Shown: positions 3,343-33,251, numbered from the stretch's first letter. The stretch: DNA of 34,623 bases from Candidatus Woesearchaeota archaeon (GCA_018221175.1 JAAOYE010000077.1:1-34623), one strand, 5' to 3'. The notes: generated by a model from the letters alone, not told the origin. Program-made: numbers and translations.

Positions 3343-3657
3343 ATGGCAGCTAGAGGCAGACCTGTTTATTCAAGGGTAAGACAAAACATTGTAGACATAC
3401 TCTATTTTCTAAAAAAAGGATATGGGTATCAGATACATAAGATTTACAAACAAATATTTGATTCTGTTTCATCAGAAGTTGTATACTATCATCTAAAAAA
3501 AGGGGTTTCTTTAGAAGAGTTTGAAGTTGTAGAATCAAAAGATGAAAAAGGACATTTTTCATGGGGAAACACAGTAAAAAAACATTATTACAAGCTTGGA
3601 CAAAATGCTAAACCAACAATGAATAAAAAAGTAAAAAAATATTTAGAAAAAATTTAA
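3343..3657 (+). CDS. Small winged-helix (PadR-like) DNA-binding protein, putative
   Basis: 104 aa. VRQNIVDILYFLKKGYGYQIHKIYKQI...VYYHLKKG resembles a wHTH recognition helix plus wing. Assignment is by pattern only. Confidence 0.45.
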   Translation: MAARGRPVYSRVRQNIVDILYFLKKGYGYQIHKIYKQIFDSVSSEVVYYHLKKGVSLEEFEVVESKDEKGHFSWGNTVKKHYYKLGQNAKPTMNKKVKKYLEKI

Positions 3658-4151
3658 AATTCGTCTTCGTCCTCAGGTTCTTCGTCTTCACGCCTGATTA
3701 CTTTTACTGCGTCAATTTTTAGGGTGATTGGGATAGGAACTGCAGCTTCTAGAAGCTCTAAAACAACTTCCTCTTTTAGCTGGTCAACACGAGTAATCTT
3801 TGCCTTCTCCCGCTTGAATGGCCCACTAATAATTTCTGCAATATCATTTTTTTGAATGTTCACGTCTCTTTTGACCTGTTCAAGCATGTGCTCAATCTCG
3901 TTGTATTCAACTTCTTTTGGCAAGATTCCTCTAGCATATGGAATCCCAAACGCTGCTTGTTCAGCCTCGACTCTGTTGTCAGCTTCTAAAAAGATGTATC
4001 CCCTCATACCATGCGGCTTAATAACACTATACACAGGCATTTTTTTCTTTTCGATATTGCTTGTAAGAAAGCCAAGCACCTGATCTTCTCTGTTAGCAGT
4101 TGTTCGAAGCGCAAAAATCTTTGTTGATATACCCTTTTTATCCTCTTCCAT
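3654..4151 (-). CDS. spt5: Transcription elongation factor Spt5 (archaeal NusG)
   Basis: NGN domain (IFALRTTANREDQV...GYIFLEA) plus KOW (IAEIISGPFKREKAKITRVD). SD-like GGGGGAAGT upstream of the ATG. Canonical position downstream of secE. Confidence 0.9.
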   Translation of the reverse strand: MEEDKKGISTKIFALRTTANREDQVLGFLTSNIEKKKMPVYSVIKPHGMRGYIFLEADNRVEAEQAAFGIPYARGILPKEVEYNEIEHMLEQVKRDVNIQKNDIAEIISGPFKREKAKITRVDQLKEEVVLELLEAAVPIPITLKIDAVKVIRREDEEPEDEDEF

Positions 4152-6867: not shown

Positions 6868-7137
6868 TTATCCTAATTGCATATTTAACATAGGCAAATT
6901 ACCATTATACATATTTCTATAATCTTCTAAATACTTTTTTTCCAGTATTGCTAATCCAACATCAACTGGTTCAATAGTAAAATATGAAAACTCTTTAGAA
7001 AAAGAATGTTCACTTAATCTTCTTGCTAATGATAAGGACCTCCCAATATATATTAAGATTTTATTTTTATCATATAATCTATATATGCCACTTTTTTTTG
7101 GAATCACATTTATTAGCTCAATAGGGAAGCTTTTCAT
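6868..7137 (-). CDS. Minimal GIY-YIG nuclease domain protein (89 aa)
   Basis: SGIYRLYDKNKILIYIGRS (GIY, 10 residues, YIG), followed by the conserved Arg (ARRLSEH), Glu (LEKKYLEDY) and Asn (YNGN). Confidence 0.75.
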   Translation of the reverse strand: MKSFPIELINVIPKKSGIYRLYDKNKILIYIGRSLSLARRLSEHSFSKEFSYFTIEPVDVGLAILEKKYLEDYRNMYNGNLPMLNMQLG

Positions 7138-7517
7138 TTCCTTTCAACATTGATTTGAAAATATCGTCCAATTCTTTGGTCTGATTTTTCTATAGGTACC
7201 CATTCCCCTTCAATATTTTCAGGTTTTAGATGATATTGATCAAACCAACTTTTTGGAGTTATTTGAAATCTATCTGATTTTGGATGCAGATTTAATTTGA
7301 AAGGATTTACATCAGGCATTAAAGCAGTATCTTTTGTAAATGCGAAATTTATTTTTATGAAATTTCTATCATTCTCTGGAGCAGACAAATAACAAAACTT
7401 ATTTTCCCTAAGATTAAACTTTTTAACAAAGTTCACATTAAAAGAAATTCTACCCGCTTTGTGAATTGTTATTAATTCATTACCTGAAAATCTGGGATTA
7501 CTATACCATTCAACCAT
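7134..7517 (-). CDS. Hypothetical protein, possible AbrB/SpoVT-like double-repeat DNA binder, translationally coupled to the GIY-YIG gene
   Basis: 127 aa. GGAGG lies 8 nt upstream of the ATG, and there is a 4-nt ATGA overlap with the downstream GIY-YIG ORF. ITIHKAGRISFNVNFVKKFNL and RFQITPKSWFDQYHL look like two swapped-hairpin-type repeats, but the fold call is weak. Confidence 0.55.
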   Translation of the reverse strand: MVEWYSNPRFSGNELITIHKAGRISFNVNFVKKFNLRENKFCYLSAPENDRNFIKINFAFTKDTALMPDVNPFKLNLHPKSDRFQITPKSWFDQYHLKPENIEGEWVPIEKSDQRIGRYFQINVERK

Positions 7518-7755: not shown

Positions 7756-7944
7756 ATGGCTAAGAAAAGCCTAAATAATATTAAATTAAGTAATAGTGTT
7801 AATCAATATGATGGATTCTATCATCTTAAATTTAGTTTAGTTTCAACAATTAAATTAAGACTTTCTCACTGGACATTTGTGGTCGTGACATTTATAAATA
7901 AGTCTTTTATATTGTTTCAAAGAAAAGTTAGCGATTTAAGATGA
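7756..7944 (+). CDS. Small hypothetical ORF (62 aa) coupled to the LAGLIDADG gene
   Basis: GGGAG lies 9 nt upstream of the ATG, and there is an ATGA overlap with the 7941 start. The sequence is uninformative and the AT-rich context makes a chance ORF possible. Confidence 0.3.
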   Translation: MAKKSLNNIKLSNSVNQYDGFYHLKFSLVSTIKLRLSHWTFVVVTFINKSFILFQRKVSDLR

Positions 7945-9191
7945 AAAAAATAATTCAACCAAAAGATTGGCAAAAAATACTAATTGGTATTAGGAAAAAA
8001 AATAATTACAGTCAAACAACTCTTGCAAAAGAGTTAAAATTATCAAGAAATTCAGTAAGCAGATTTGAAGCATTGCAAAGATTTCCAAATAAAGAATCTA
8101 AAGAAAAAATCGTAAACTATCTAATATTAAAAAATTATAATATTAATGAATTGATAAATAAAGGAACTAATTATTCTAATGAATATAAAACCAGAAGAAT
8201 CAAATCAGAATTAAACTTAAAGCTTTCAGAAAAACTAGCAGAATTAATAGGAATAATTCTTGGTGATGGTGAAATTAGAAGTGATGGGACTATTAGGATC
8301 TCATTTGATCCTAAAAAAGATGTTAACTATATTGATAGAAGAGTAATAGCATTAATTCAATCTATCTTAGGAAATAAAGTTTATTTTGAAAGTGAAAAAC
8401 GAATCTCATTTGGAAATATAAGTTTTATGAGGTACTTGAAAAGTATCGGGCTTCCTTCTGGAAGCAAATTTGAAAACAATATCAAAATTCCTTCTTTATT
8501 TTTTAAAAATAATAAATATCTCTGTGCAGTACTGAGAGGATTGTTTGATACAGATGGATACTTTGGTTATCTAAATGGTTCCTTAGAGCTAATGCTTGGA
8601 AGATTCTCAGAAAAATCTGTAAACCTTGTTAATGATATTTCACTAGCTTTGAAAAAATTAAATATTAAACACAAAATAATTACTTCAAATGACGGTCAAT
8701 TTAAAGTAAGATTAACAGATAAATTAGAAATAATTCGGTTTTTCTCAATTATTGGCTCGTCTAATCTGAGAAACATTGTTCGATTTCTTTTATGGAGAAT
8801 AAATAAATACGAAGCAAAAATCGAAATTGAAGGATTTCATAACTTATTATTAAAAGCAAAAAAAATAGATAAAAACATTGAAAATATTTCTTTTCCATTC
8901 TTATGGAATCAAAATAACAAGCAGTTTAAAAAATACATAAAAGAAGATGAAATTGAAATTAAAGGCTCAAAATTAAGAGATAACTATTCATGGTCAAAAA
9001 TAGTTAAAGAGTTAATTAATAAGAGAGGTCAAGAATCAATTGCTAATCATTTCAAAATCACAAAAAGAAGTGTGAGAAAATGGAGAGAAGGAAGTAGAAC
9101 TCCTTCTAAAAAATACATCTTAAGTTTATTAAAGATGTCGGAGGAAAATAAAATGAAAATAAACAAGTATAAGGTGATAAAAAATGGCTAA
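7941..9191 (+). CDS. Free-standing LAGLIDADG-type homing endonuclease flanked by N- and C-terminal HTH segments
   Basis: Two LAGLIDADG motifs: LAELIGIILGDGEI (nt 8235-8276) and LRGLFDTDGYFG (nt 8532-8567). XRE-like HTH YSQTTLAKELKLSRNSVSRFE near the N-terminus and IANHFKITKRSVRKWREG near the C-terminus. The stop overlaps rpl11 codons 2-3. Confidence 0.8.
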   Translation: MKKIIQPKDWQKILIGIRKKNNYSQTTLAKELKLSRNSVSRFEALQRFPNKESKEKIVNYLILKNYNINELINKGTNYSNEYKTRRIKSELNLKLSEKLAELIGIILGDGEIRSDGTIRISFDPKKDVNYIDRRVIALIQSILGNKVYFESEKRISFGNISFMRYLKSIGLPSGSKFENNIKIPSLFFKNNKYLCAVLRGLFDTDGYFGYLNGSLELMLGRFSEKSVNLVNDISLALKKLNIKHKIITSNDGQFKVRLTDKLEIIRFFSIIGSSNLRNIVRFLLWRINKYEAKIEIEGFHNLLLKAKKIDKNIENISFPFLWNQNNKQFKKYIKEDEIEIKGSKLRDNYSWSKIVKELINKRGQESIANHFKITKRSVRKWREGSRTPSKKYILSLLKMSEENKMKINKYKVIKNG

Positions 9192-9969
9192 AGAAACAGT
9201 CAAAGTACAGATTGAGGGTGGAAAAGCTACCGCTGCGCCTCCTTTAGGTCCCGCATTTTAATAATATTAGGCGAAAGGACCCCTAAAGATTAATATTGGC
9301 GATGTTGTAAACCAAATCAACGAGAAAACAAAAGAGCTTGCAGGAATGCAGGTTCCTGTTTCTGTTATCATTGACACAGACACAAAAGAATTTGAAATAA
9401 AGGTAGGCACTCCGCCAGCATCAGCACTAATCAAACAGGAAGCAGGTGTTAAAAAAGGAGCAGGAAACCCATTAACAGAAAAAGTAGCTGACCTTAAAAT
9501 CGAGCAAATCATCAAGGTTGCAAAGATGAAAGAAACATCACTTCTAGGAAAAACCCTAAAAGACAAAGGCAAAGAAATCATAGGAACATGTCAGTCAATG
9601 GGCATCCTGGTTGAAGGAAAACCAGTTCCAGAAACACTAAAAGATGTTGATACAGGAATGTATGACGAGAAGTTCGCGTCTGGAAAAACAGAGCTTTCAG
9701 TTGAAGAACTAAAACAGCAAGAAGAAGATAGGATAAGGATGCAGGAAGAAATCGAGGCAAAGCGCGCAGAGTACGAAGCCAAAGCTAAAGACATCATTGC
9801 TCAGATGAAAGACAAAGACAGAAAAGAAATAGAAGCAAAGATGAAAGAAGAAGAGCTTCCACAAGCAATAATCAATGAAATGCTTCCAGAAGAAGCAGCT
9901 GTGCCTATTGAAGGAGAAGAAGCACCAGAAGCAGAAGAAGTTCCTAAAGAAGAAGAAAAGCCTGAGTAA
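9184..9969 (+). CDS. rpl11: Ribosomal protein uL11, interrupted by an 18-nt in-frame stop-containing insert (proposed exons 9184-9257 and 9276-9969), with a long charged C-terminal extension
   Basis: AGGTGA lies 5 nt upstream of ATG 9184. Exon 1 encodes MAKETVKVQIEGGKATAAPPLGPA, followed by TAA, TAA and TAG. The same frame resumes with GPLKINIGDVVNQINEKTKELAGMQVPVSVIIDTDTKEFEIKVGTPPASALIK... The track shows only the 9346 Met fragment. Confidence 0.85.
9258..9275 (+). other. Candidate bulge-helix-bulge mini-intron in rpl11 mRNA (TTAATAATATTAGGCGAA)
   Basis: Sits between two 3-nt bulges (TTT 9256-9258, AAA 9274-9276) that are separated by helix CGCA/GGCG and closed by helices GGTCC/GGACC and TAA/TTA. 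Removing it restores Ala-Leu-Gly and the reading frame. Confidence 0.55.
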
Positions 9970-31444: not shown

Positions 31445-32515
31445 TTATGCTTCAAGATTGGCAGATGAATCGCCACCCTCATTGTCTTTTTTATCTTCTG
31501 ATGGTGGTGATTGTACTTCCGGTTCATCGGCACTAGCAGTTTCACTGCTTTGTGTTGGTGTCTTTTCTTTTTCTTCTTTTGAAGTTTCTTCTTTAGCGTT
31601 TTCTTTTTGTTCTTCTGCTTCCGGTTTTTCCTCAAGCTTTTCTTCAGGTTTAGGCTCTTCTTTTACACTTTCTGGCACCAATGCTTTTAGGCTTTGCATT
31701 TGTGACTCTGCCTTTGCAAGGATGCTCGGAATTGTTTTGTCTGCTAAAATGTTTTGGGAAACCGAAAGAATTGTAGCCTCAAACTCTGCTTTTGTAATCA
31801 AGACTTCTGTTGTTAAATCATTGTATATTCCTGCTTCCATTGCAAGATTAAACGACCATCTGTGACCATTTAAAATATTATTTATGTACTCATCCTCGTT
31901 GATGTTAAGGGTTTCTTTTGTGAAAATCTCTCCATCTTCAATCGTTGCTGTTAGGTCAAGGCCTATTTCCATTGGCTCAATTCCAAGTCTTTGGAGAATC
32001 GCAGCGACATTTGCCGGGATTTCTTCTCCTTCCTTGACGACAATTGCTTCTTCTTTAATTGCGACTTTCCCAGCGTCAATACCTGCTTTTATTCCAATAG
32101 CTCCAAGTTCTCCGATAACCGGTCCTGGTGCAAACGGTGTTGGCCCTGCCTCAACAACTATGTCTTTTGGAGCGATTTGTCCTGCTTTTGCAGGTGCTGA
32201 AGATTTGTTTTTTTCAAGGTTTTTAAAAAGCTTGAAAGGGTTTTCTTTTGTAAATATTAGTGCTGGCTGTCCTTTTAGATATGGAATTATTTTTTCAAGG
32301 CCTTTTTTGTCTGCTTTTTCTAAAGCGAGTTTTAGAAGCCTTTTCTTTGTCATCTTTAGGACTACTTCATCTTTTCTAAGTTGCGTTCTCATGGTTTGAA
32401 GTTGCGGTGTTGGCATGCCTTCCATGTTCACAGCTCCAACTATTGGGTACTCTTGTGCTAGTTTTGCAAAGTCGTTCACTATTTGCTTTTTTGCTTGATT
32501 TACTTTTGCTGCCAT
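31445..32515 (-). CDS. rpl10: Ribosomal stalk protein uL10 (P0)
   Basis: MAAKVNQAKKQIVNDFAKLAQEYPIVGAVNMEGMPTPQLQTMR...APAKAGQIAPKDIVVEAGPTPFAPGP... ATG 32515 lies 1 nt after the rpl1 stop. Confidence 0.95.
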   Translation of the reverse strand: MAAKVNQAKKQIVNDFAKLAQEYPIVGAVNMEGMPTPQLQTMRTQLRKDEVVLKMTKKRLLKLALEKADKKGLEKIIPYLKGQPALIFTKENPFKLFKNLEKNKSSAPAKAGQIAPKDIVVEAGPTPFAPGPVIGELGAIGIKAGIDAGKVAIKEEAIVVKEGEEIPANVAAILQRLGIEPMEIGLDLTATIEDGEIFTKETLNINEDEYINNILNGHRWSFNLAMEAGIYNDLTTEVLITKAEFEATILSVSQNILADKTIPSILAKAESQMQSLKALVPESVKEEPKPEEKLEEKPEAEEQKENAKEETSKEEKEKTPTQSSETASADEPEVQSPPSEDKKDNEGGDSSANLEA

Positions 32516-32516
32516 T

Positions 32517-33170
32517 TTATTCAATTTTTACTGGTTTTCCCATAGTATATTTTAAAAATGCTGTTTTGATATTGTTTTGTTCTGATGGAAGGTGATGTAC
32601 TAGTTGACTGTAAGCTGTTTTGATATTGTCAATAACTTCCTTTTCGTTCTGCTCCTGGTTTCCTACAGTTATTTGAACAATTGGCTGTGTCTTTGCCTGA
32701 AGCCTAATAGTTTTTTGAAGCCTTTCATAAATTGGTTTTAGAGTTGCTTTTGGAGGAACAACGCATCCTGCTTTTGGGTTTGGCATCTTGCCTTTTGGTC
32801 CAAGTACCTTACCAAAGACTTGTGCTACCTGTGGCATGATGTTTGCCTGAGCTATAAAGTAATCATATTCCTTTACAAGCTTTTTTAGAAGTTTTTTGTC
32901 GTCTTGGTATTTTTTAAAGTCTGATTGCGCGATTACAAAATCGCAAACTTTTTGAGCTTCTTCCATTAGTTCTGGTGCTGCAAACGCGCAGATTTTGACA
33001 TCTTTGCCGTTTGAAAAGTGAAGACTTGTAAAAAAATCCACCTGGTGCTCTGCTCTTTTTAAGTCTAAATCTTTTAGAACAAAGATAGCGTCTACTTTCT
33101 GATTAAAATTCCTTTTCTTAGAATCCTTTTTGATATTTTCTAATGCTTGTTTTATTGTTTTATCGTCCAT
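32517..33170 (-). CDS. rpl1: Ribosomal protein uL1
   Basis: MDDKTIKQALENIKKDSKKRNFNQKVDAIF...GKMPNPKAGCVVPP. GGAGGG lies 8 nt upstream of ATG 33170, so the track extension to 33212 is rejected. Confidence 0.95.
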   Translation of the reverse strand: MDDKTIKQALENIKKDSKKRNFNQKVDAIFVLKDLDLKRAEHQVDFFTSLHFSNGKDVKICAFAAPELMEEAQKVCDFVIAQSDFKKYQDDKKLLKKLVKEYDYFIAQANIMPQVAQVFGKVLGPKGKMPNPKAGCVVPPKATLKPIYERLQKTIRLQAKTQPIVQITVGNQEQNEKEVIDNIKTAYSQLVHHLPSEQNNIKTAFLKYTMGKPVKIE

Positions 33171-33251
33171 TTTGTCTACCCTCCTACTCGCAAATGTTTT
33201 GCAGTAGTCCACCGGGATTACTAATATCCTTTCAGAAACTTGATTTGATTT

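Follow-up and report, generated by a model that had tools for sequence, protein, structure and literature searches.

Why does the gene of a putative homing endonuclease lie directly in front of the ribosomal-protein gene rpl11 in an archaeal genome, overlapping its start, and why is the coding sequence of that same rpl11 broken near its beginning by an insert of 18 nucleotides (nt)? Both features belong to a 34,623-nt stretch of DNA from Candidatus Woesearchaeota archaeon (GCA_018221175.1 JAAOYE010000077.1:1-34623), here called the window, from whose first letter positions are counted unless another locus is named. An initial annotation, made from the sequence alone, had suggested that the enzyme recognises uninterrupted rpl11, that the insert is a candidate mini-intron shielding the host copy, and that the two form a mobile unit of two parts. 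The answer that we reach, as probable though well short of certain, is that a free-standing endonuclease targets a conserved site in rpl11 and that the mini-intron is one of two routes by which its carriers become immune. From the observations set out below we infer the cleavage activity and specificity of the enzyme, the splicing of the insert in vivo, the route by which alleles meet, and the mobility of the element.

The endonuclease gene comprises the following parts.

7941..9191, plus strand: predicted free-standing helix-turn-helix (HTH)-LAGLIDADG-HTH homing endonuclease gene, an open reading frame (ORF) of 416 amino acids (aa), supported by Pfam, homologues, an AlphaFold2 (AF2) model and Foldseek
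7965..8132, plus strand: N-terminal XRE/Cro-type HTH domain, residues 9-64 (Pfam HTH_3; AF2 helices 9-21, 25-32, 36-43 and 51-64)
8229..8810, plus strand: double LAGLIDADG nuclease core, residues 97-290 (motif conservation; AF2 secondary structure)
8235-8276, plus strand: LAGLIDADG motif 1, LAELIGIILGDGEI, residues 99-112, with Asp109 at 8265-8267
8532-8567, plus strand: LAGLIDADG motif 2, LRGLFDTDGYFG, residues 198-209, with Asp205 at 8553-8555
8991..9170, plus strand: C-terminal HTH domain, residues 351-410 (HTH_28 below threshold; AF2 helices 351-362, 364-371, 375-383 and 390-402)

The 416-aa protein is predicted to be a bona fide two-domain LAGLIDADG enzyme flanked by HTH domains. Its two LAGLIDADG motifs lie exactly at the nucleotides where the initial annotation had placed them, and Pfam LAGLIDADG_3 matched residues 194-272 above its cut-off (E 1e-8). 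The XRE-like HTH reported at the N-terminus was recovered by Pfam HTH_3, also above cut-off (residues 17-49, E 2.6e-7). The HTH-like segment reported at the C-terminus scored 21.9 bits with HTH_28 in the window protein (residues 353-382), under the cut-off of 25 bits, and was matched more strongly in several other family members, by HTH_23 (2e-6), by a YdaS/Cro-like model (3e-6) or by CI/Cro models. Examined member by member, 37/37 homologues matched LAGLIDADG_3 and 35 of the 37 matched HTH_3. A profile of the family, compared with the PDB, found HTH structures of the Cro/C1, MBF1 and HipB types at residues 7-64. The alignment of homologues also revealed a short subfamily of about 350 aa from which the C-terminal HTH is missing.

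In the alignment of the 37 homologues, G108-D109-G110 of motif 1 are conserved at 90% or more, and R199, G200, F202, D203, T204, D205 and G206 of motif 2 are invariant. The conservation of the Asp in each motif thus indicates that both metal-binding residues are under selection. The AF2 model, built with the homologue alignment, has a mean predicted local distance difference test score (pLDDT) of 93 and a predicted template modelling score (pTM) of 0.80. Its core runs twice through the order helix-strand-strand-helix-strand-strand-helix, and both LAGLIDADG helices end at their Asp. When the model was compared with the PDB by Foldseek, the top matches were the TliVMA intein endonuclease, I-Tsp061I (template modelling (TM) score 0.70 over the target) and I-DmoI (about 0.67); the Foldseek probability was 1.00 for I-Tsp061I, I-DmoI, PI-SceI, I-AniI and I-OnuI, and WhiA was also among the structural matches. 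Profile search and predicted fold therefore agree on a LAGLIDADG fold that is flanked by HTH domains and keeps its catalytic residues.

The reported lack of intein (Hint) blocks was borne out as well: no Hint or intein model of Pfam matched the 416-aa protein, and NCBIfam matches to intein proteins were confined to residues 132-289, at 18-24 bits against cut-offs of at least 780. An intein or intron-encoded endonuclease is ruled out by the missing Hint blocks and by an intron that is far too short to hold an ORF.

The rpl11 gene that follows is composed as listed here.

9173..9178, plus strand: Shine-Dalgarno-like GGTGAT for rpl11, situated 5 nt ahead of its ATG and within the final codons of the endonuclease gene
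9184..9257, plus strand: rpl11 exon 1, 74 nt, MAKETVKVQIEGGKATAAPPLGPA plus the TT of Leu25, read from the sequence
9258..9275, plus strand: putative 18-nt mini-intron of the bulge-helix-bulge (BHB) type, TTAATAATATTAGGCGAA, recognised by frame restoration, homologous inserts and covariation
9247-9251/9277-9281: outer exon helix of the predicted BHB
9252-9255/9270-9273: central helix of the predicted BHB
9256-9258 and 9274-9276: the two 3-nt bulges
9259-9262/9266-9269: intron hairpin
9276..9969, plus strand: rpl11 exon 2, which also encodes a Glu/Lys-rich C-terminal tail of about 100 aa
9238..9285, no strand assigned: putative DNA target, codons about 19-28 (PPLGPALGPL), split here by the intron and proposed from the association described below

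Read through without splicing, the window rpl11 gives GGKATAAPPLGPAF and then two stops (...PPLGPAF followed by both stops), after which the reading resumes. Removal of positions 9258-9275 produces an uninterrupted L11 of 255 aa with PPLGPALGP restored, and this spliced form matches the Pfam family Ribosomal_L11_N in full (1-58/58, E 1.6e-22) as well as Ribosomal_L11. Five other loci carry an insert in the same gene, each behind an exon 1 of 74 nt as in the window, and the lengths of the inserts are 18 nt in the window, 21 in L166, 16 in L004, 17 in L091, 23 in L001 and 24 in L167. The mini-intron without an ORF of its own, as originally annotated, is thus part of a series of inserts of 16-24 nt whose removal restores the frame. 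Four of the six lengths are not multiples of 3, so that retention of the insert in the mRNA would shift the reading frame of these four rpl11 genes.

The six inserts share a common fold with their flanking exons. Two Gly-Pro codon pairs (GGNCC...GGNCC) form the outer helix, there are two bulges of 3 nt, the central helix of 4 bp pairs the Pro wobble base and the Ala codon with intron bases, and the intron hairpin differs in length among the loci. In the six-sequence alignment, 96% of the cells fall in standard pairs, against 28-48% when the partners are slid, and compensatory changes are present at five pairs, one of them between an exon wobble base and an intron base (C-G in four loci, A-U in two). 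The minimum-energy fold computed with ViennaRNA is the BHB for L166, L001 and L167, for L166 in a register with a central helix of 3 bp, and a relaxed bulge-helix-loop form for the three shortest inserts (window, L004 and L091). By its sequence, the window BHB would be classed as a relaxed form.

Known BHB introns are cut between nucleotides 2 and 3 of each bulge (PMC2738675). A cut by this rule removes exactly the inserted bases and regains GCN-TTA-GGN (Ala-Leu-Gly), GPALGP and the reading frame in 6/6 loci. Homologous arrangements recur in independent assemblies, and the inserts are therefore neither a chance finding nor an assembly error.

In public gene calls, intron-bearing rpl11 begins at the internal Met49, and of the two Pfam domains the product retains the C-terminal one alone. 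They span the following positions, each counted in its own locus.

L001, 7417-8046: rpl11 called from Met49
L004, 1608-2225: rpl11 called from Met49
L166, 4415-5068: rpl11 called from Met49
L167, 2893-3534: rpl11 called from Met49
window, 9346-9969: rpl11 called from Met49

The truncated L11 of these calls is an annotation artefact. At its other end, the window L11 continues past the two standard domains into a tail of about 100 aa that is rich in Glu, Lys and Ala (9650-9969); L11 homologues in this lineage have 235-278 aa, against the usual 160 or so.

How is the endonuclease gene placed with respect to rpl11, in the window and elsewhere? A database search yielded 223 relatives, of which about 50 align over most of the query at 33-68% identity. 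Their hosts are metagenome-assembled genomes of Woesearchaeota, Nanoarchaeota, Aenigmarchaeota and Micrarchaeota, which bear only generic names in the sources. The family is rare, with about 14 clusters at 50% identity reaching E<1e-100 among 1.84 billion representatives. We retrieved flanking DNA for 17 distinct members; one locus, L171, stops at the contig edge, which leaves 16. In all of these 16 loci with downstream sequence, the end of the endonuclease gene falls within -78 to +26 nt of the rpl11 start codon. In the window its TAA stop (9189-9191) spans codons 2-3 of rpl11, whose ATG is at 9184-9186, in agreement with the overlap originally described, and the last endonuclease codons do encode the Shine-Dalgarno-like element that had been assigned to rpl11; the motif aaggtga occupies the equivalent place in L166 and L004.

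The gene on the 5' side of the endonuclease varies among the loci and may be Spt5, CMP kinase, TrmB, DUF2283 or a hypothetical gene. Where relatives lack the endonuclease gene, Spt5 often stands next to rpl11, separated from it by 5-300 nt. Taken together, the variable upstream neighbours and the abutment of Spt5 and rpl11 in relatives make the endonuclease gene look inserted into the Spt5-rpl11 spacer.

In one intron-bearing locus the overlap goes further. The endonuclease ORF of L167 (1435-2802) lacks a stop of its own and runs in frame through 25 codons of L11 exon 1 to a UAG just inside the intron, so that the tail of the protein is the L11 N-terminal peptide. The relative P0006 shows the same loss of the stop, as judged from its protein sequence.

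We then compared the state of the rpl11 site with the presence of the endonuclease gene. GTDB species representatives were scanned with an L11 alignment, and the best 80 loci, all uninterrupted, served as controls; 69 of them have at least 1.4 kb upstream, enough to hold the endonuclease gene. No endonuclease homologue was found in the fetched flanks of any of the 80 control loci, and the gene is absent from 69/69 of the related loci whose upstream stretch is long enough to contain it. None of these 69 endonuclease-free loci has an insert, and 66 of them encode GPALGP. Conversely, the endonuclease gene lies directly upstream in 6/6 of the intron-bearing rpl11 loci that we found, and the site is either interrupted or substituted in 15 of the 16 endonuclease-positive loci. 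The GPALGP segment, intact in 66/69 loci without the gene and disrupted in 15/16 loci with it, is on these grounds the proposed target of the enzyme.

Ten of the 16 endonuclease-positive loci have no intron, and in nine of these ten, residues 21-24 of L11 are replaced. Their site states are these.

GSSL: L003, L086 and L088
GPQL: L089 and L090
GTSL: L172
GNSL: L173
LAQTL: L169
LAQSL: L170
GPAL, intact: L168

Calling a residue rare when its frequency among endonuclease-free loci is below 3%, we found rare residues at positions 22-25 in 9/10 intron-less carriers and in 3/69 controls (Fisher p ~1e-8, a value uncorrected for phylogeny that overstates the independence of related loci). Over residues 17-32 the carriers have 2.0 rare residues per locus against 0.09, an excess of about 22-fold, whereas other windows of 16 residues in L11 range from 1- to 5-fold. 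The consensus at residues 12-27 is kept in 5/6 of the intron-bearing loci; L167 has a single rare residue, Met21. The nine intron-less carriers with rare substitutions at the very codons of insertion thus strengthen the assignment of the target site.

An L11 search at the protein level was run to offset the loss of interrupted genes from the scan that gave the 80 loci. Among the 120 closest L11 protein clusters, four were without the N-terminal domain, namely the window, L166, P0209 (an artefact of a contig end) and P0216 (on a contig of 1.4 kb). Only two of the 120 clusters are verifiably interrupted genes, and both are endonuclease-positive. The intron is seen only together with the endonuclease gene. 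The proposed co-occurrence of endonuclease and insert thus holds (6/6 intron loci with the gene, 0/69 endonuclease-free loci with an insert), and the two are not independently distributed; the stronger idea of a two-part unit stands as to co-occurrence and fails as an obligatory pairing, for the ten carriers without an intron possess the gene alone.

Two endonuclease-free loci deserve separate mention. In L058 (3501-3974), Spt5 lies just 45 nt upstream of rpl11, yet the site reads GPQL as in L089 and L090; an endonuclease gene may once have been present here and have left this GPQL behind when it was lost. A similar case is L029, with GPSL.

The distribution of the family is sporadic and site-specific, as is typical of a selfish element. 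In a tree of L11 computed with the site masked, carrier loci are scattered among endonuclease-free loci. The L11 proteins of L088, L090 and L167 are 84-92% identical, and these three loci exhibit three different site states and endonucleases that share only 51-62% identity; between L167 and L090, L11 is 92% identical and the endonucleases 51%. The endonuclease of L167 is nearest to that of L004 (68%) although their L11 proteins are 64% identical, and exon 1 of L167 resembles that of its host's relatives, not that of the nearest endonuclease donor. The endonuclease tree, for its part, groups the loci by site state, and the short GPQL forms make one clade.

These observations can be assembled into the following mechanism. 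The ORF at 7941-9191 would encode an active, free-standing and monomeric two-motif LAGLIDADG homing endonuclease, in which an N-terminal XRE-type and a C-terminal Cro/homeodomain-like HTH extend the contacts with DNA. Its gene would be a site-specific selfish insertion directly 5' of rpl11, usually overlapping the start and carrying the ribosome-binding site, and its target would be the near-invariant segment of rpl11 that codes for PPLGPALGP, some 55-95 bp past the endonuclease stop. Carriers would survive because the target site is destroyed at the DNA level, by either of two routes. In the first, adopted by the window and five other loci, a mini-intron of 16-24 nt would split Leu25 (between TT and A) and form a BHB with the flanking Gly-Pro codons; the tRNA-splicing endonuclease and the RtcB ligase would excise it from the mRNA, leaving L11 wild type, so that this route should cost the protein nothing. 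In the second, taken by the other loci, immunity would come from otherwise very rare amino-acid replacements at residues 21-24. To spread, the enzyme would cut a naive allele; repair from a positive donor would then copy in the endonuclease gene and, with it, a 5' end of rpl11 that is immune. Since the endonuclease gene carries the ribosome-binding site of rpl11 and overlaps its start, imprecise loss of the endonuclease gene would damage an essential gene, which may aid the persistence of the element.

Several observations weigh against this account of homing into rpl11. The controls are the loci that scored as most similar to a query containing GPAL; as a set they favour uninterrupted genes and are not a random sample. 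One endonuclease-positive locus, L168 (3001-4704), has the uninterrupted consensus GPALGP; its L11 bears the rare residues Gln14 (GGQ for GGK) and Ser18, 18-30 nt upstream of the site, at codons that an HTH domain might contact. Those five intron-bearing loci whose endonuclease gene is complete fall into one clade, with a bootstrap of only 36%. Overall, the identities of endonuclease and L11 are correlated (r = 0.83), and much of the inheritance may therefore be vertical; a cautious reading is a mixture of vertical descent, loss and occasional transfer. With regard to the intron, the fourth central pair of the window BHB is an A·G mismatch, the window hairpin consists of A and U only, is weak and is absent from the minimum-energy fold, and genes for the splicing endonuclease and RtcB were not found within the 34.6-kb window. 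Lastly, the phage collection that we searched contained no match, and the only matches among the viral contigs of IMG/VR were distant ones to the LAGLIDADG core, with identity no higher than 34% in most alignments. A virus- or plasmid-borne element is not supported by these searches.

Free-standing endonucleases, among them the Seg and Mob enzymes of T4, often cut away from their insertion point. The window enzyme might accordingly be real and possibly mobile and have another target, either in the Spt5-rpl11 spacer or at an unlinked locus, with the intron and the substitutions as linked hitch-hikers or lineage markers. Such an explanation accommodates L168, where the gene coexists with an intact GPALGP; linkage would also predict an endonuclease tree that groups by site state, and the biased control set with its phylogenetically related members leaves room for lineage markers. 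We nevertheless regard it as unlikely. At least six different disruptions fall in the same 2-4 codons, within the most conserved stretch of L11, and no other part of the protein comes near the enrichment of rare residues seen there. Moreover, the close hosts L088, L090 and L167 carry three different disruptions, and the consensus codons kept in the intron-bearing loci fit protection at the DNA level, not drift.

We consider it less likely still that the protein is a domesticated, WhiA-like LAGLIDADG regulator of rpl11 or of its own operon that does not cut DNA. HTH domains on both sides of the core, an N-terminal domain like those of phage and toxin-antitoxin repressors, the presence of WhiA among the structural matches, and a fixed position with translational coupling to an essential gene would all suit a regulator. 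However, the catalytic Asp residues and their surrounding motifs vary little or not at all, in which the protein differs from WhiA, the Pfam model LAGLIDADG_WhiA gave no match (E 0.35), and 69/69 close relatives do without the gene. A beneficial regulator should, besides, keep its nearby binding site, not coincide with the destruction of that site. Assignment to the WhiA family itself is rejected in view of the retained catalytic residues, the unmatched WhiA model and the sporadic distribution.

That the 18-nt insert is no intron at all, but a product of pseudogene formation, assembly error or translational bypassing unrelated to the endonuclease gene, is very improbable: although the window BHB is imperfect and T4 gene 60 offers a precedent for bypassing and not for splicing, homologous inserts with covarying helices occupy the identical position in six independent assemblies, which rules out assembly error or a pseudogene, rpl11 is essential and single-copy here, only removal by the BHB rule restores Leu25 and the frame for all six lengths, and bypassing, rejected on this ground, cannot regenerate Leu25, since a jump between the Ala codon and the following one would, in most loci, put another residue in its place and, in L167, bring the ribosome to a position just ahead of a UGA.

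Homing into rpl11, with the mini-intron as one means of immunity, has its nearest parallel in phages. In T4-like phages, MobA and the 50-nt bypass insert of gene 60 constitute one mobile cassette, in which the insert, placed in a conserved topoisomerase gene, blocks self-cleavage by the adjacent MobA (bioRxiv 10.1101/2022.08.31.505936); that source cites Bonocora et al. 2011 for the system. There, as at rpl11, a free-standing endonuclease gene is found beside a short non-coding insert in a highly conserved coding sequence, and one of the two parts is lost in some lineages; as we propose for rpl11, the insert breaks the recognition site and protects its carrier while the protein sequence is preserved, and both parts travel together. 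MobA, however, is an HNH nicking enzyme of phages and its insert is skipped by the ribosome, whereas here a LAGLIDADG protein resides in cellular archaea and the insert is structured as an RNA-spliced BHB intron. In addition, many of the rpl11-linked carriers use amino-acid substitutions in place of an insert.

Other phages provide examples of collaborative or intronless homing, with F-CphI and the psbA intron, MobE and nrdA, and SegF. As proposed for our loci, a free-standing endonuclease gene adjoins its target, alleles without the intron or the variant are cut, the carrier is protected by an ORF-less intron or by polymorphisms, and flanking markers are co-converted. These systems differ from ours in that they belong to phage genomes and involve self-splicing group I introns and enzymes of the GIY-YIG, HNH or Endo VII-like classes. 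We know of no archaeal BHB intron or ribosomal protein gene in any of them. F-CphI is described in PMC6083498.

Among archaeal enzymes, I-Tsp061I and I-DmoI are the best structural matches with archaeal hosts and share the single-chain LAGLIDADG core with two motifs; like the window enzyme, they are tied to BHB-type introns in genes of the translation apparatus. They have only about 180-200 aa and are encoded within long introns of rRNA, whereas the window enzyme is free-standing, has 416 aa and two HTH domains, and is encoded outside the ORF-less intron of 16-24 nt in a protein gene; sequence identity is 16-20%. WhiA resembles the window protein in fusing a LAGLIDADG scaffold to an HTH, in its case a C-terminal one, and is a structural match, yet it is bacterial, has lost its catalytic acids and is universal in its clade; the window protein keeps both Asp and is sporadic.

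For the intron, the comparison is with cbf5 of Crenarchaeota, which as of 2009 was the sole archaeal protein gene with confirmed splicing of its mRNA (PMC2738675). In both cases an archaeal protein gene is interrupted, the splice points, predicted ones in rpl11, lie between bulge nucleotides 2 and 3, and presence is lineage-specific. Unlike the rpl11 inserts, the cbf5 intron has no linked endonuclease gene; the rpl11 inserts, moreover, occur in DPANN archaea, and it is the Gly-Pro codons repeated in the exons that supply their outer helix. Among splicing endonucleases of DPANN archaea, those that possess an extra loop have been connected with disrupted tRNA genes (PMC5829648). Our literature search found no report of rpl11 splicing after PMC2738675 (2009) and no paper that deals with a BHB intron in rpl11 or with the present family of endonucleases.

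What we propose is new in its combination of four features: the host is a cellular archaeon, the target lies in a ribosomal-protein gene, the LAGLIDADG enzyme is extended by two HTH domains, and the protective insert is an RNA-spliced BHB mini-intron. If our interpretation is right, rpl11 presents the first comparative case of a BHB intron in the mRNA of an archaeal ribosomal protein, and its mini-intron is the shortest such intron. The link to a homing endonuclease offers a testable reason for the intron, namely protection of the target site, and would carry the logic of an endonuclease plus a protective insert over from phages into cellular archaea, with RNA splicing in the place of ribosomal bypassing. 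It also appears that a selfish nuclease is forcing amino-acid change upon a ribosomal motif that otherwise hardly varies. On the broadest form of the proposal we are evenly divided: that attack on the GPALGP segment, among the most conserved of all coding sequences, by a dual-HTH LAGLIDADG enzyme drives both the smallest known mRNA introns (16-24 nt), whose exon helix is supplied by the repeated Gly-Pro codons of the gene itself, and otherwise 'forbidden' replacements in the N-terminal domain of L11, which would make it a cellular, archaeal counterpart of MobA/gene 60 and a concrete route to the origin of introns. In practical terms, gene callers truncate these rpl11 genes, which a BHB-aware caller would correct. 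The compact, naturally HTH-extended LAGLIDADG protein is a possible scaffold for meganuclease engineering; most archaea possess its predicted target, and bacteria have a similar sequence.

A sister family of about 500 aa, represented by L092 (3243-5775) and L093 (160-2727), has the same HTH-LAGLIDADG-HTH order plus an extra N-terminal domain. It is 27-30% identical, keeps the catalytic motifs and is not adjacent to rpl11. Instead, in both loci the gene stands tail-to-tail with that of topoisomerase VI subunit A, with a 3' overlap of about 50 nt and subunit B beyond. The sister family may be a second gene-specific lineage of endonucleases.

The rest of the 34.6-kb window has the ordinary content of a DPANN-type chromosome, with genes for FtsZ, FKBP, CMP kinase, glycogen metabolism, a P-type ATPase, Elp3 and RsmB. 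Scans of the window for Rfam families and tRNA genes found nothing. A Na/Pi cotransporter-PhoU gene comes after rpl11, and the usual archaeal order Spt5-rpl11-rpl1-rpl10 is dispersed. The remaining features are listed below.

3654-4151, minus strand: Spt5, 5 kb upstream of rpl11 and on the other strand
31445-33212, minus strand: rpl10 and rpl1, 22 kb downstream of rpl11 and on the other strand
6868-7137, minus strand: ORF of 88 aa with a GIY-YIG domain only (Pfam E 9.6e-7)
7134-7517, minus strand: ORF of 127 aa without a family match, overlapping the GIY-YIG ORF

The last two form a pair (6868-7517) between the CMP kinase and endonuclease genes, and this pair may represent another small nuclease or mobile gene.

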